DNA of 64,000 nt from assembly GCF_053078305.1 (NCBI RefSeq), contig NZ_CP166879.1; one strand, written 5' to 3'. Positions 31,369 to 38,005 of this stretch are shown here, piece after piece; positions within the stretch are counted from its first letter, which is position 1; each line of letters begins with the position of its first letter. The translations under genes and the position numbers were made by a program. The notes under the pieces were generated by a model. The model saw nothing but the letters and a program-made list of their open reading frames with translations. It did not search any database and was not told where the DNA came from.

Positions 31369-31609
31369 AAATAAAAAAATCCCGCAGAGTTAGTGGAGCT
31401 GCGGGAAATAACGATGAAGATTAATGTTATGGAGTTATTTTTTTGGGCAGAAAAACAGTAACGCAGCGTCATTATAGCGGCTACAGGCAATTGCCGGAAA
31501 TGTGAAGAATTTCAGAAATTTTATTCCGTCATGACACAGGCACCCTCCGGGGTGCCTGTTGTTTTTGGGCATAAACAGATTCAGACATCAGACAGGAGAG
31601 GGGGACAGA

Positions 31610-34600
31610 GTGGGTAAAGGGGGCGGCAAGGGGCACACACCGCGTGAGGCGAAGGACAATCTCAAATCCACGCAGATGATGAGCGTGATTGATGCCATTG
31701 GTGAGGGACCGGTGGAAGGTCCGGTGAAGGGACTGCAGAGTATTCTGGTGAACAAAACCCCGCTGACGGACACGGACGGTAATCCCGTGATACACGGTGT
31801 GACCGCCGTCTGGCGCGCCGGGGAGCAGGAGCAGACACCGCCGGAAGGCTTTGAGTCCTCCGGGGCAGAAACCGCACTGGGCGTGGAGGTGACGAAGGCA
31901 AAGCCGGTGACGCGCACCATCACGTCAGCGAACATTGACCGTCTGCGGGTCACCTTCGGGGTGCAGTCACTGGTGGAGACCACCTCAAAGGGTGACCGTA
32001 ATCCCTCTTCTGTCCGCCTGCTGATTCAGCTTGAGCGTAACGGGCACTGGGTGACGGAGAAGGATATCACCATTAACGGCAAGACCACCTCGCAGTACCT
32101 GACGTCTGTGATTCTGAATAATCTCCCTGAGCGCCCCTTTAACATCCGGATGGTCAGGGAGACGGCGGACAGCACCACGGACCAGCTGCAGAACAGAACG
32201 CTGTGGTCGTCATACACCGAAATCATCGATGTGAAACAGTGCTACCCGAACACGGCCATTGTGGGGCTGCAGGTGGATGCGGAGCAGTTTGGTGGCCAGC
32301 AGCTGACGGTGAACTACCATATCCGTGGTCGCATCATTCAGGTGCCGTCAAACTATGACCCGGAAAAACGCACCTACAGCGGTATCTGGGACGGGAGTCT
32401 GAAACCGGCATACAGCAATAACCCGGCCTGGTGCCTGTGGGACATGCTGACCCACCCGCGCTACGGCATGGGAAAACGCCTGGGGGCCGCGGATGTGGAC
32501 AAGTGGGCACTGTATGCCATCGGGCAGTACTGCGACCAGACGGTCCCGGATGGTTTCGGGGGAACAGAGCCGCGGATGACTTTCAATGCGTACCTGTCAC
32601 AGCAGCGTAAGGTGTGGGATGTCCTGGGGGATTTCTGCTCGGCGATGCGCTGTATGCCGGTATGGAACGGCCAGACGCTGACGTTCGTTCAGGACCGTCC
32701 GTCGGATGTGGTGTGGCCGTACACCAACAGCGATGTGGTGGTGGATGATAACGGCGTGGGGTTCCGCTACAGCTTCAGTGCCCTGAAGGACCGGCACACG
32801 GCGGTGGAGGTGAATTACACCGACCCGCAGAACGGCTGGCAGACCTCCACGGAACTGGTGGAAGACCCGGACGCCATCCTGCGCTACGGACGCAACCTGC
32901 TGAAGATGGATGCGTTTGGCTGTACCAGCCGCGGTCAGGCCCACCGTGCCGGACTGTGGGTGATAAAGACCGAACTGCTGGAAACGCAGACGGTGGATTT
33001 CACGCTCGGGTCACAGGGGCTGCGGCATACGCCCGGTGACATCATTGAAATCTGTGATAACGACTATGCCGGGACCCTGACCGGCGGACGCATCCTGTCC
33101 ATTGATGCCGCCAGCCGCACACTGACGCTGGACCGTGAGGTGACACTGCCGGAAGCAGGGACATCGACGGTGAACCTGATTAACGGCAGCGGTAAGCCGG
33201 TGCGCGTGGACATCACTGCACACCCCGCGCCGGACCGGATACAGGTCAGCGCCCTGCCGGATGGCGTGGAGACATACGGTGTGTGGGGACTCTCCCTGCC
33301 GTCACTGCGTCGTCGCCTGTTCCGCTGTGTTTCCATCCGGGAAAACACGGACGGCACTTTTGCCATCACGGCAGTGCAGCACGTACCGGAAAAAGAAGCC
33401 ATTGTGGATAACGGGGCTCGCTTTGAGCCGCTGTCCGGTTCACTGAACAGCGTTATCCCGCCGGCAGTGCAGCACCTCACGGTGGAGGTGAGTGCCTCAG
33501 ACGGCCAGTATCTGGCGCTGGCGAAATGGGACACGCCGCGGGTGGTGAAGGGCGTGCGCTTCAGTCTGCGCCTGACCAGCGGAAACGGTGAAAACAGCCG
33601 CCTGGTGACCACCGCCATCACTGCCGACACGGAGCACCGTTTCAGTGGCCTGCCTCTGGGGGAATACACCCTGACGGTCAGGGCGATAAACAGCTACGGC
33701 CAGCAGGGCGAACCTGCCACCACCGCGTTCCGGATTAATGCGCCTGCAGCACCGGCCAGCATTGAGCTGACGCCGGGGTATTATCAGATAACAGCAGTAC
33801 CGGTGCTGGCGGTGTATGACCCGACGGTACAGTTTGAGTTCTGGTTCTCGGAGGCAAAAATCGCAGACACATCTCAGGTGGAAACCTCTGCCCGTTATCT
33901 GGGGACAGGCAGCCAGTGGAGCGTCTCCGGCCCGCACATCAAGCCGGGGAAGGATTTCTGGTTTTATGTGCGCAGCGTTAACCTGGTGGGGAAATCTGCG
34001 TTTGTGGAAGCCAGTGGCCGGGCGAGCAATGATGCAGAAGGGTATCTGGGGCTGTTTCGGGAAAAGATAGGAAAACTGCATCTGGCACAGGGGATGTGGG
34101 AGCTGATTGATAACAGCCAGCTTGACAATGAGATGGCGGAGATGAAGACCACCATCACCGAAACCCGCAATGAAATCACGCAGACGGTCAGTAAAACCCT
34201 GGAAGACCAGAGCGCCACCATACAGCAGATACAGCGGGTGCAGACAGACACAAATAACGACCTGGCTGCGCTGTACATGCTGAAGGTGCAGAAAACAAAA
34301 AACGGCATTCCGTATGTTGCCGGTATAGGTGCGGGGATTGAGGATGCTGATGGCCAGCCCCTGAGCAATATTCTGCTGCAGGCGGACCGTATCGCGATGA
34401 TTAACCCGGAGAACGGCAACACCACGCCGCTGTTTGTGGCGCAGGGGAATCAGCTGTTCATGAACGATGTGTTCCTGAAGCGGTTGTTTGCAGTGAGCAT
34501 CACCTCGTCCGGCAATCCCCCGACGTTTTCCCTGACGCCGGACGGGAAACTGACGGCCCGCAATGCTGATATCAGCGGACATATCAGTGCGAACTCGGGC

Positions 34601-35077
34601 ACGCTGAATAATGTCGTGATAGCGGAGAACTGTACGATAAATGGCACGCTGAAAGCGGAGAACATTATTGGTGATCTTGTGAAATGTGCAGGGGTGGCTT
34701 TTCCGGTGGATGGTAGTTACCTTGCGAACGGTACACGAACGCTGACGGTATATGACGATCACAGCTTTGACCGGCAGATTATAATCCCGCCGATAATCTA
34801 TGTCGGGTCAAAACAGGAATCCCGTACCAGTAATGACATCTGGACAGAGTGCTTCCTGCATGTTGATCAGAACGGACGCCGGATTTATTCAGGCAGGTCA
34901 GTGACAGAGCCGGGAATTTTCAGCGGGATCATCGATATGCCAGCCGGAGGTGGTCATATCACCCTGAGTTTTACCGTAAGTTCACGACGTCAGAACGGGA
35001 GTTTTGGCAGTTCACGTATCAGTAACCTTCAGGCGATAGTGGTGAAGAAAAACAGCGCGGGGATCAGTATCCGCTGA
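31610..35077 (+). CDS. J: Tail tip / host specificity protein J
   Basis: GTG start (GTG GGT AAA GGG...) after SD AGGAGAGGGGG; 1155 aa with strong lambda-J similarity and a divergent C-terminal receptor-binding region. Confidence 0.9.
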
Positions 35078-35275
35078 ACATCGCGCCCCGGGATTGCCGG
35101 AAGGAGACAAAAACCGTACAGTATGCGCGGGTGCCTTTGGCTGATGGCCGGAGGGAACACCTGAAGGCCGGAAAGACGAAGGCCCCGGACAAACATTCAT
35201 GTTTAACCCGAGGCCTGACTTTCGATCTTCAGCAAATTGAAGGTTAGCGCCTCTCCGTAAAAGGAGCAAGCGTTT

Positions 35276-35416
35276 ATGTCGCAAAAACCGTTAAAAACCA
35301 CCGTGATTTGTACCACGGTAGTGCTCATTATCTGGATCACCCACACTTCACTGTGCGAGTTCCGGTTCCGGATAGCGGGCGCGGAGATTGCGGCGTTCTT
35401 ACAGTGTAAGCAGTAA
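35276..35416 (+). CDS. Hok/Gef-family type I toxin-like small membrane protein, 46 aa, in the lom position
   Basis: MSQKPLKTTVICTTVVLIIWITHTSLCEFRFRIAGAEIAAFLQCKQ carries the Hok signature (TM helix, then SLCE-x-R-x-R...E-I/V-AAF...C); SD AAGGAG 9 nt upstream. Confidence 0.6.
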   Translation: MSQKPLKTTVICTTVVLIIWITHTSLCEFRFRIAGAEIAAFLQCKQ

Positions 35417-35513
35417 GAAACCGTGGCGTGGGAGAATATCCCCCGCCGACCGGTTGCTGAGGGTGGTCAGCCGGATGGCACCGTTTTAACACCAACAAAC
35501 CACAAATATTACC

Positions 35514-35547
35514 GCAGGCCGGGAAACCGGTACTGCGGTTTTTTTAT
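35514..35547 (+). terminator. Rho-independent terminator downstream of the hok-like gene
   Basis: CCGCAG...CTGCGG stem followed by TTTTTTT. Confidence 0.55.
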
Positions 35548-35558
35548 GGGGGAAATCC

Positions 35559-37292
35559 ATGACAGTCAGAATATCGGGTGTGCTGAAGGATGGTACGGGA
35601 AAAGCGGTACCGGGATGCACGATAGAGCTGAAAGCGCGCCGCACAACGGAGACGGTGATTGTCACCACGGTGGCGTATGGTCAGCCGGGGGAAACCGGCA
35701 GTTACAGTATGGATGTTGAGCCGGGGTTGTACCGGGTGACGCTGAACACGGAAGGGTACGCGCCGTCATATGTGGGTGACATTCTGGTGAAGGCGGATTC
35801 TGCACCGGGAACGCTGAATAAATTTCTGATGGACCTGGAAGACGCACAGTATTACCCGAAAGCCCTTGCAGAGCTGGAAGCGGTGGCAGCGGAAATCCTG
35901 AAGCGTGCAGAAGCGTCAGCGGCCAGTGCAGAGGAAGCGAAGAAACGGGCAGAGAATGCGCGGGGACCGAAGGGGGATAAGGGAGACACCGGGCCACAGG
36001 GGATTCCCGGGCCAAAAGGCGATACCGGCGAGCGGGGGCCAAAGGGTGAGCGTGGTGAGACAGGGCCACAGGGGCTTCAGGGTGTGAAAGGTGAACGGGG
36101 AGAGAAGGGCGAAAAAGGCGAGCCGGGAGGGCCGGATGCGACGACGGCACAGAAGGGAATTGTGCAGTTAAGCAGCGCAACGGACAGTGATGATGAAACG
36201 AAGGCAGCCACGCCGAAAGCGGTGAAAGCGGCAATGGACAAAGCGGACGGATGCCTGGAGAAAGCGAAAAACGGTGACGATATCCCGGATAAGGTGAAGT
36301 TTCTGAACACCGTGGGAGCAGCCAGAGTATACGGGCGGGACATTCATACGGGGGCCGGTGAATGGACCACGAGTGAGTTTGTCGCCTGGCTGAAAGAAAA
36401 AGGGGCATTTGACCAGCCTTACTGGATGATGAAGGCATCACTGCTTGCGTCAATGAATAAAGTCATCACAGATGTCGGACCGGGAAAACTCAATCTGGGT
36501 GGCTGTGTCATTGAGGTGATGGGAACGTATGAGGCTGCCATAGTCCGGGTCACCATTGGCGAATACGGTGCAACGGGGTTTATTAATGGCACGGTCTGTA
36601 CCTGTACGGTTTACGGCGACACACAGTATTTCCACTGGCGGGTGGATTACAGCACAAAAAACAAACCGGATACGGTCAGCCAGCGGGATGCCAGTACGAC
36701 GCAGAAAGGTGTGGTGCAGTTAAGCAGTGATACTGGCAGTAATGACGAAACAAAGGCAGCCACGCCGAAGGCCGTGAAGGCGGCAATGGATGTGGCAAAT
36801 GAAGCGAAAACAAAGGCAGAAGAGGCTGCAGCAGGAGGTGGTGTTCCCGGTCCGAAAGGAGAGAAAGGTGACCCCGGAGCACAGGGTCCGAAAGGTGAAA
36901 CGGGAGCAACAGGCCCCGCTGGTCCGCGGGGAGCGCAGGGACCGAAAGGGGAGAAAGGCGACCCCGGTCCCAGAGGTGAGCGTGGAGAAACCGGGCCGAT
37001 GGGGCCGCCGGGGGCATCAGGAGATGACGGGAAGAGTCGTGTCATGGGCTTCAGGCTGGGGAATCCGGTAACGTATGAGTTGCAGGAGGGGGACCATGGC
37101 TGGTCAGTTAATCTGGCTGATGGTTCAGTCATTACAGGGCTTTCGGGGAACACTCAGGGCGGCGTCAGCCGTGTTACAACGATTTACTACAGGCCGCTGC
37201 AGATGACGTTTGATGGCTCTCACTGGCGCACCGTTGGTGTTGGTGAGTATGTGTCGTCAGGAGCGCCGGGGCGTGAGTATTTTTCATTATAA
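35559..37292 (+). CDS. stf: Side tail fibre protein with two collagen-like Gly-X-Y tracts
   Basis: 577 aa; [37 protein letters not shown] and a second GXY run. Confidence 0.85.
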
Positions 37293-37333: not shown

Positions 37334-38005
37334 ATGCACATAAAGAATTTCAGACAATACACGCCGGAAAATCCGGATGTGCCGGGTGCGATGTACCTGA
37401 AATCAGAGGATGGTCAGGACTGGTATGAGTGTCAGTCGTTATTTTCAGCAGAGACGCTGAAGGTGGTTTATAACAGTGCCGGGGTCATTACCGGCATCAG
37501 CAGGGTGGCATCAGTTCTGTGGCCTGTGAATCAGAGTGTGGTGGAGGTGGCGGATACGGAAGAAAACCGCAAAGCTGACATCTCCGGGCGCTGGGGTTTT
37601 GACGGGGAGAAAATCACGGACCTGCTGACCGCGGAGAAAGCGCGAGGGATGAAGGGCGATGAAATTAACGCCTGGCGTAATGCGATGGAAGCGGCGAACT
37701 ACACGTTTGAGCACAATGGGCGTAAATGGGACTACGGGAAGTCAACGCAGACGCGTCTTGAGCCGTCGGTGGCGGCAGCGAAAGCGGGGAAACTGCCGGA
37801 GGCGTTTTTCTGGACGGATGCGGAAAACAATGATGTGCCGGTGACAGCAGACGAGCTTATTGCGCTGAGTGAAGCGGCAGAGCAGGCGATGTTTACCAAA
37901 GGGATGGAAATCCACGTCCGGCAGCGCACCATGAAGAAAGAGCTGGAAAAGCTGACCAGTGAGGATGAGATACTGGCATACAGGGTTGGCTGGGCACAGG
38001 AATAA
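37334..38005 (+). CDS. tfa: Tail fibre assembly protein
   Basis: 223 aa, lambda Tfa-like, immediately after stf. Confidence 0.8.
   Translation: MHIKNFRQYTPENPDVPGAMYLKSEDGQDWYECQSLFSAETLKVVYNSAGVITGISRVASVLWPVNQSVVEVADTEENRKADISGRWGFDGEKITDLLTAEKARGMKGDEINAWRNAMEAANYTFEHNGRKWDYGKSTQTRLEPSVAAAKAGKLPEAFFWTDAENNDVPVTADELIALSEAAEQAMFTKGMEIHVRQRTMKKELEKLTSEDEILAYRVGWAQE

Follow-up and report, generated by a model that had tools for sequence, protein, structure and literature searches.

A predicted hok/sok module without a mok frame between the J and tail-fibre genes of a lambdoid prophage

The locus between J and the tail-fibre gene

We analysed a 64,000-nucleotide (nt) stretch of contig NZ_CP166879.1 (RefSeq assembly GCF_053078305.1), referred to here as the window, in which a lambdoid prophage carries a small toxin gene, hok, between its J gene (31559-35077, phrog_31) and a tail-fibre gene (35559-37292, phrog_366). 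This is the position that lom occupies in lambda. No lom gene was found in the J-to-tail-fibre interval of the window, and the initial annotation, which had assigned a Hok/Gef-family type I toxin to the lom slot between J and stf of a lambdoid prophage, was right about the position. The segment 35094-35546 is likely to be a self-contained type I toxin-antitoxin module of the hok/sok kind, carried in the J-stf gap as an accessory insert (moron): it is flanked by J and the tail-fibre gene, has its own predicted promoter, and has its own supported terminator. The features of the module, in window coordinates, are as follows.

35094-35122, plus strand: predicted hok promoter, from sequence reading (-35 TTGCCG at 35094-35099, 17-nt spacer, -10 TACAGT at 35117-35122)
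35129-35141, plus strand: predicted 5' end of the hok mRNA and tac element (GGGUGCCUUUGGC), from position 1 of the RF01794 match and from fold pairing
35169-35234, minus strand: predicted Sok RNA of ~62-66 nt, from its fold, a conserved promoter, and a sokC-like position
35210-35214, plus strand: GAGG box, the proposed partner of an anti-Shine-Dalgarno sequence (GCCUC, 35249-35253); aligns with the mok Shine-Dalgarno sequence of R1
35214-35241, plus strand: Sok-target segment, the complement of the Sok 5' tail, hypervariable between copies
35241-35269, minus strand: predicted Sok promoter, conserved (-35 TTGCTC at 35269-35264, 17-nt spacer, -10 TAACCT at 35246-35241)
35247-35272, plus strand: hairpin sequestering the hok Shine-Dalgarno sequence, from the consensus fold (GCGC-CU-CUCC / GGAG-CAA-GCGU, with GGAG at 35263-35266)
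35276-35416, plus strand: hok coding sequence, ATG at 35276, 46 amino acids (aa), from profile matches and substitution rates
35419-35455, plus strand: stable 3' stem-loop (fold -20.5 kcal/mol, z -3.9)
35470-35482, plus strand: fold-back inhibitory (fbi) element (GCCGGAUGGCACC), pairing with the 5' end of the mRNA
35511-35546, plus strand: intrinsic terminator, a bulged G+C-rich hairpin (35511-35539) and a T-run (35539-35546)

A Hok/Gef-family peptide under purifying selection

The product of the 46-aa open reading frame (ORF) is MSQKPLKTTVICTTVVLIIWITHTSLCEFRFRIAGAEIAAFLQCKQ. Its Shine-Dalgarno (SD) sequence, GGAG, is spaced 9 nt from the ATG. Residues 8-23 form a hydrophobic stretch, after which comes SLCEFRFR...EIAAFL...C, in line with the initial annotation, which had described a good SD, a single transmembrane helix, and this signature. 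The family assignment was upheld by profile searches: Pfam HOK_GEF (PF01848) matches residues 10-44 with an E-value of 7.9e-10, PHROG 251 matches the full length with an E-value of 4.4e-20, and the leader matches Rfam RF01794 above its gathering score. Identity to the HokA protein of K-12 is 43%, and to R1 Hok it is 39% across 33 aa. C12, T13/T14, S25-L-C-E28, and E37-x-A-A-F41 are kept in both alignments. Across 283 pairs of relatives, the median ratio of non-synonymous to synonymous substitution rates (dN/dS) was 0.26, falling to 0.18 in the C-terminal half, which is purifying selection on the peptide. All 85 loci parsed had an intact ORF, a count that is biased because the parse demanded an in-frame N-terminal MSQK and an AAFLQCK motif. 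Taken at the level of sequence, the 46-aa ORF is confirmed as a genuine Hok/Gef-family peptide.

Prior annotation and distribution of the family

The initial annotation had suggested that the gene might be unannotated; this was mistaken, since the gene is already named by PGAP, belongs to a PHROG family, and has close relatives in a published catalogue. Of 5,426 complete E. coli genomes, 269 contain the 481-bp J-stf interval over 80% or more of its length, and 1,528 contain part of it. All the matches listed carry the RefSeq/PGAP label "Hok/Gef family protein" (e.g., WP_000078852.1), and strain HY220605 has gpJ, Hok/Gef, and tail fibre in that order. The J-hok-tail-fibre context is likewise that of RefSeq strain H1. 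In the catalogue of Escalera-Maurer et al. 2026 (bioRxiv 10.1101/2025.08.07.668861), two relatives, 79_1563 from Hok cluster 79 and 72_1589 from Hok cluster 72, were among the homologues cloned for toxicity assays. Toxicity was reported for 42 of the 45 constructs tested, and the three named exceptions include neither of them. The same study found hok to be enriched in prophages; it dealt with coding sequences only, leaving Mok and Sok unanalysed. The window peptide is identical to 79_1563 at 43 of 46 residues, differing at T13, T24, and Q46.

The other cloned relative, 72_1589, is the variant adjoining lom in the Shiga toxin (Stx) phages 933W, Sp5, and 75/02, with 65% protein identity to the window peptide. 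At the DNA level its locus is 76% identical to the hok locus of the window, and it lies directly after lom rather than replacing it. In Shigella phage 75/02 Stx (locus L002, 3022-3376), as in 933W and Sp5, RF01794 scores only 33 bits against a gathering score of 59. The homologue is annotated as "MokW-like host killing" or as "hypothetical", and it represents a second Hok-type locus, distinct from hokW-sokW. We considered whether the 75/02 copy could be hokW and rejected this: the hokW leader is absent from the part examined, and HokW has 51 aa. The PHROG 251 name "MokW-like host killing" is therefore misleading, as the 46-aa family differs from the HokW locus. One further 933W-type copy, in IMGVR_UViG_2529293141_000015, has its promoter and tac region swapped for unrelated sequence while the remainder is intact; it is probably a product of recombination or decay.

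Loci were collected by protein and pattern searches, and 27 representatives, less than 96% identical to one another, were retained. The pattern scans gave four matches in species-representative genomes and 120 stretches in metagenomes, which reduced to 77 unique leaders. Relatives were found in E. coli lambdoid prophages, in Stx podophages, in P2-like elements of Serratia, in Salmonella and Citrobacter, and in metagenomes. A Yersinia relative lies in an element with a Mu-type com/mom-like pair (a Com zinc-ribbon protein and a methyltransferase). Similarity among the relatives starts at the hok -10 and ends right after GGCACC(C).

Transcript boundaries and the fold of the hok mRNA

The start of the hok transcript was placed with Rfam model RF01794 ("sok"), which matches 35129-35287 on the plus strand at 63.5 bits (gathering score 59, E-value 2.4e-13, model positions 1-157). 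At the hokB and hokC loci of K-12, this model matches the strand that encodes hok, with the annotated sokB and sokC on the other strand, and its match stops at the hok AUG; we therefore read it as the hok leader in sense orientation. We observed that, despite being named "sok antitoxin", RF01794 marks the hok leader from +1 to the AUG and not the Sok-coding strand, both in the window and at loci L218 and L219. The predicted hok promoter matches the consensus at 8 of 12 positions, under the scan threshold of 9; most of 139 related loci have a -10 of the TA.A.T pattern and a -35 of TTGCC. The predicted mRNA is ~355-418 nt long.

At its downstream end, the strong intrinsic terminator claimed for the region after the ORF was borne out by folding: the segment 35484-35550 folds at -25.6 kcal/mol (z -5.0), and none of 200 shuffles was as good. 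It forms a separate hairpin in the fold of the entire 418-nt transcript, and relatives have differing terminators 30-60 nt beyond fbi. A simple consensus scan of the window with strict thresholds detected neither of the two promoters nor the terminator, the terminator stem being bulged.

Alignment A2 (378 columns), which covers the 27 representatives from the predicted start of the mRNA as far as the 3' element, was used for the consensus fold. Columns 1-7 pair with 372-378 and columns 10-13 with 365-368, which corresponds in the window to the pairing of 35129-35141 with 35470-35483. This tac/fbi fold-back comprises 11 pairs across ~350 nt and is also found in minimum-energy folds of single sequences. 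All four of its variable pairs change on both sides (CG/UG/UA, GC/CG, GC/AU, and CG/GC). In the consensus structure as a whole, 98.4% of cells pair, and 14 pairs have double changes. Its covariation score was reached in 0 of 500 column shuffles, and controls in which the partner was slid paired at 30-43%. Folded by itself, the window copy reaches -155.7 kcal/mol (z -6.8) and retains the fold-back, also when the terminator is included. The initial annotation had proposed searching the leader for fbi/tac elements and an antisense promoter, and that search turned up both: a tac/fbi pair with compensatory changes and a predicted, conserved Sok promoter.

Two local hairpins accompany the fold-back. 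In the 3' stem-loop, five of the nine inner pairs show compensatory changes. The hairpin that sequesters the hok SD is kept across relatives as GCGC-CU-CUCC/GGAG-CAA-GCG(C/U), and the G-U changes that occur in this helix are confined to one of its sides. For each of the 27 sequences, the full-length model leaves the hok SD no more than 3% unpaired. We also observed, in the consensus fold, that the hok start region at 35276-35284 (AUGUCGCAA) pairs with 35388-35396 (UUGCGGCGU) within the coding region. Both segments are invariant in the 27 relatives, synonymous sites included, and show no covariation; this invariance points to a constraint at the RNA level.

A predicted Sok antisense RNA

The leader also appears to encode a cis-antisense Sok RNA that has a promoter and a terminator of its own, as predicted from sequence. 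The initial annotation had looked for Sok within the leader at about 35100-35275, and the predicted RNA does lie there, running on the minus strand from 35234 to ~35170. It would start at ~35233-35234 with a single-stranded 5' tail of ~18 nt, continue into a hairpin (GGCCUCGGG...CCGGGGCC), and finish with the U-rich tail CCUUCGUCUUUCC ending at ~35170. Its fold is -25.7 kcal/mol (z -3.5), and the base of the hairpin is preserved through compensatory changes. For each of the 27 relatives, the antisense strand has the more stable fold of the two, by 4-15 kcal/mol, partly because what is a U-G pair in Sok is an A-C mismatch on the mRNA side. A MAFFT alignment of the Sok sequences misplaced the hairpin's 5' arm and yielded a poor consensus, and per-sequence folds were used instead. 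The predicted Sok covers nt 41/44-106 of the mRNA, compared to nt 44-102 for the annotated sokC of K-12. Its predicted promoter is conserved among 139 related loci, with the -10 TAACCT in 138 and the 17-nt spacer in 135. The -35 varies among relatives (TTGCTC, TTGCCT, TTGTCT, and TTGACT).

Absence of a mok frame

A hok locus would be expected to have an overlapping mok frame, and the initial annotation had anticipated one; here that expectation failed. All leader ATG, GTG, and TTG codons were tested for an ORF running beyond the hok start, and none in the window passes the hok ATG, while the positive controls (an R1-like locus, hokB, and hokC) each yielded one. No conserved mok frame was found among the 27 diverse relatives either, and the starts and ends of their leader ORFs are scattered. 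A UAG at 35245-35247 is invariant because it is the complement of the Sok -10, yet 9 of the 27 relatives have no leader ORF reaching it. In no relative is the GAGG box followed by a start codon at a distance of 5-12 nt. Literature searches on hok loci lacking mok returned nothing relevant.

An explanation that keeps closer to R1 is that hok translation is still coupled to a short or non-canonical leader ORF that varies between copies. In its favour, mok must be translated as far as the hok SD in R1 (PMC9841398), and in our models the hok SD is closed in all states. The candidate in the window runs from UUG 35237 to UAA 35258-35260, seven codons passing through the anti-SD arm; in the relatives, it would be any ORF stopping at UAG 35245-35247, where a terminating ribosome would melt the SD hairpin. 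Some ATG, GTG, or TTG ORF with that ending exists in 18 of the 27 relatives. However, the starts of these ORFs are scattered at mRNA nt 3, 46, and 104-109, the other nine relatives have no such ORF, and the three-codon version (GUG-AAA-GGU-UAG) has no preceding SD. The invariant UAG itself is accounted for by the Sok -10 on the opposite strand, and the GAGG box lacks a suitably placed start codon. We regard a coupled leader ORF as unlikely.

The locus could also be a translationally silent relic, in which native Hok is never made without mok and selection acts on the RNAs or on nothing. The missing mok frame, the strong sequestration of the hok SD, and a mismatch of the window copy in its protective 3' hairpin (described below) would all fit. 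Against this, the peptide is under purifying selection, most strongly in its C-terminal half, and the ORF is intact in every locus parsed, subject to the motif bias noted above. The module has moreover been kept in prophages of differing types in Escherichia, Salmonella, Serratia, Yersinia, and Citrobacter, and tandem multi-copy arrays occur. We regard a silent relic as highly improbable. That the ORF arose by chance in a spacer, next to an unrelated J terminator, has only its small size in its favour and is refuted by the Pfam, PHROG, and Rfam matches and by the covariation, leaving a negligible chance.

A possible mok-free switch and variable Sok targets

By analogy with R1, the module would work as follows. 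The full-length hok mRNA would be translationally inert, and slow 3' trimming to a stable hairpin would remove fbi and let the leader refold. The stem-loop at 35419-35455 would form the 3' end of the active, processed mRNA and protect it. Short-lived Sok would pair with nt 44-106 of the refolded mRNA, blocking expression and triggering decay by RNase III. If Sok were lost, Hok would be made, insert into the inner membrane, and depolarise the cell. With no mok frame present, Sok cannot work through a block on mok translation. We propose instead that, after refolding, the GAGG box may pair with the anti-SD and thereby free the hok SD, and that Sok, by covering the GAGG box, may return the anti-SD to the hok SD.

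Folding of the mRNA in its processed form is consistent with parts of this scheme, and weakly suggests the GAGG/anti-SD switch. Removal of fbi in the model leads the 5' end to pair with GGCCCC (35181-35186), in a helix that corresponds to the first one of the Rfam model and to the tac stem of R1. In the fold of the 3'-truncated mRNA, 35210-35226 pairs with 35236-35253, including GAGGC (35210-35214) with GCCUC (35249-35253). Mean accessibility of the hok SD was 0.086 in the truncated mRNA and 0.005 with the Sok target masked, and was lower on masking in 27 of 27 sequences. One lineage (L012 and L047) has changed GGCCCC, GAGGCC, and GCGCCUC jointly to GGUCCC, GAGACC, and GCGUCUC. A consensus fold of the leader only recovered the tac stem and the SD hairpin but not the GAGG:anti-SD helix, and the 77 unique leaders contained almost no new variation in the GAGG or anti-SD boxes.

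The segment complementary to the Sok 5' tail behaves differently from the rest of the locus. Across 21 near-identical E. coli J-stf loci, nucleotide diversity was 0.22-0.33 at 35218-35241 compared to at most ~0.05 over most of the locus, and the Sok target falls into five discrete alleles. Smaller diversity peaks coincide with the Sok 3' tail and the loop of the 3' hairpin; the Sok 3' tail (35169-35183) alternates between two types. Some viral contigs carry two or three complete hok/sok copies in tandem, ~500 bp apart (L046 362-1707; two each in L045 and L053), and such tandem copies always differ in their Sok-target allele. Strict orthogonality of co-resident copies was considered and is not supported, as two genome pairs share an allele across separate prophages.

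Taken together, we tentatively propose, at somewhat less than even confidence, that the subfamily (46-49 aa, MSQK...AAFLQCK) is mok-free, with GAGG acting as an anti-anti-SD that is captured by Sok, and with the Sok tail and its target forming discrete specificity alleles. No account of a mok-free GAGG switch or of Sok specificity alleles was found in the literature searched.

A number of points weigh against the module as we read it, or against the proposed switch. The peptide scores below the curated cut-offs of two NCBIfam models, with 37.2 bits against 89 for HokA (NF007290) and 34.2 bits against 73 for a Hok subfamily model (NF007279); because of these scores, we take it to be a divergent Hok subfamily and not HokA itself. 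Both promoters, both ends of the transcripts, and the processing step are predictions from sequence. The window copy has a U35429-C35443 mismatch in the 3' stem-loop where almost all relatives have a G-C pair. In R1, substitutions that weaken the last stem-loop of truncated hok mRNA abolish toxicity (PMC9841398), and by analogy the window copy may be attenuated. With regard to the switch, the hok SD is mostly paired in every modelled state and the proposed opening is small. The equilibrium model of accessibility also misses the known opening of the mok SD in the R1-like locus (0.25 vs 0.24), and because this control failed the SD accessibility results are weak evidence. Finally, the GAGG and anti-SD boxes are almost invariant, and their covariation comes from a single lineage.

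Significance of the locus

As a gene call, the locus adds little: the toxin is annotated, its cluster is catalogued, and a peptide almost identical to it already figures in toxicity assays. On computational grounds, only the lack of mok and the allele-like nature of the Sok target go beyond existing annotation, and our overall verdict is that this is a known, ordinary element with a modest regulatory twist. In the R1 paradigm, Sok acts only through mok. If our proposal is correct, a widespread subfamily that lacks mok and keeps all other RNA elements would represent a second wiring of the same switch, and a simple system in which to test it. Specificity alleles of Sok, if real, would let several copies coexist in tandem arrays and in genomes with many prophages. 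The allele-like antisense target would then be a compact example of possible specificity diversification among co-resident prophages. Candidate roles for the module are prophage retention, an aid to lysis on induction (reported for hokW-sokW), and exclusion of other phages.

Neighbouring features

The tail-fibre gene is followed by a tail-fibre protein/assembly-like gene (37334-38005, phrog_11571, with an N-terminal match to phrog_136). Host genes lie beyond the tail genes, among them a major facilitator superfamily transporter, fructuronate reductase, and dcp. In the host region downstream of the prophage, we observed a full-length match to the Rfam Hfq-binding small RNA STnc560 (47657-47872, plus strand, 276 bits), which is unrelated to the module.

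Comparison with known systems

The R1 hok/sok/mok system offers the most complete comparison. The module has in common with it the fold class of the peptide, a weak hok promoter, a tac/fbi fold-back, and a stable 3' hairpin after processing; the tac/fbi pair and the protective last stem-loop are described for the R1 hok mRNA (PMC9841398). Also common to both are a cis-antisense Sok of ~60 nt whose promoter overlaps the region of the hok SD, and a GAGG box at the same position in the leader. The layout of the Sok promoter parallels the TTGCGC-17-TATCCT of the R1-like locus. The two systems differ in that the window has no mok, encodes 46 aa compared to the 52 of R1, and lies in the late region of a prophage rather than on a plasmid. 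Given the absence of a mok frame, the action of Sok must differ from that in R1 in at least the mok step.

Among the chromosomal loci of K-12, HokA is the closest named peptide, with common SLCE and AAFL.CK motifs and an fbi-like GCACCC 3' element. The sokB and sokC genes of K-12 occupy the same leader positions as the predicted Sok of the window. There, however, mokB and mokC are annotated; they start 9-11 nt inside the Sok 5' end and overlap hok, and the window has no counterpart.

The hokW-sokW pair of the Stx2 prophage Sp5 (Takada et al. 2021, PMC8621323) is likewise a Hok-family module in a lambdoid prophage. It is a type I pair that aids lysis and phage release after mitomycin C (PMC8621323). 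That the window locus is itself hokW was rejected, as the hokW leader, taken from the published primers (PMC8621323), is absent from the window, and HokW is a 51-aa peptide (MKQQKAM...). Lastly, in the aapA/IsoA system of Helicobacter pylori, the SD of the toxin itself is sequestered and 3' processing with refolding activates the mRNA (PMC9841398), which is the same logic that we propose here. The families are unrelated, and the likeness to the window would be one of mechanism only.

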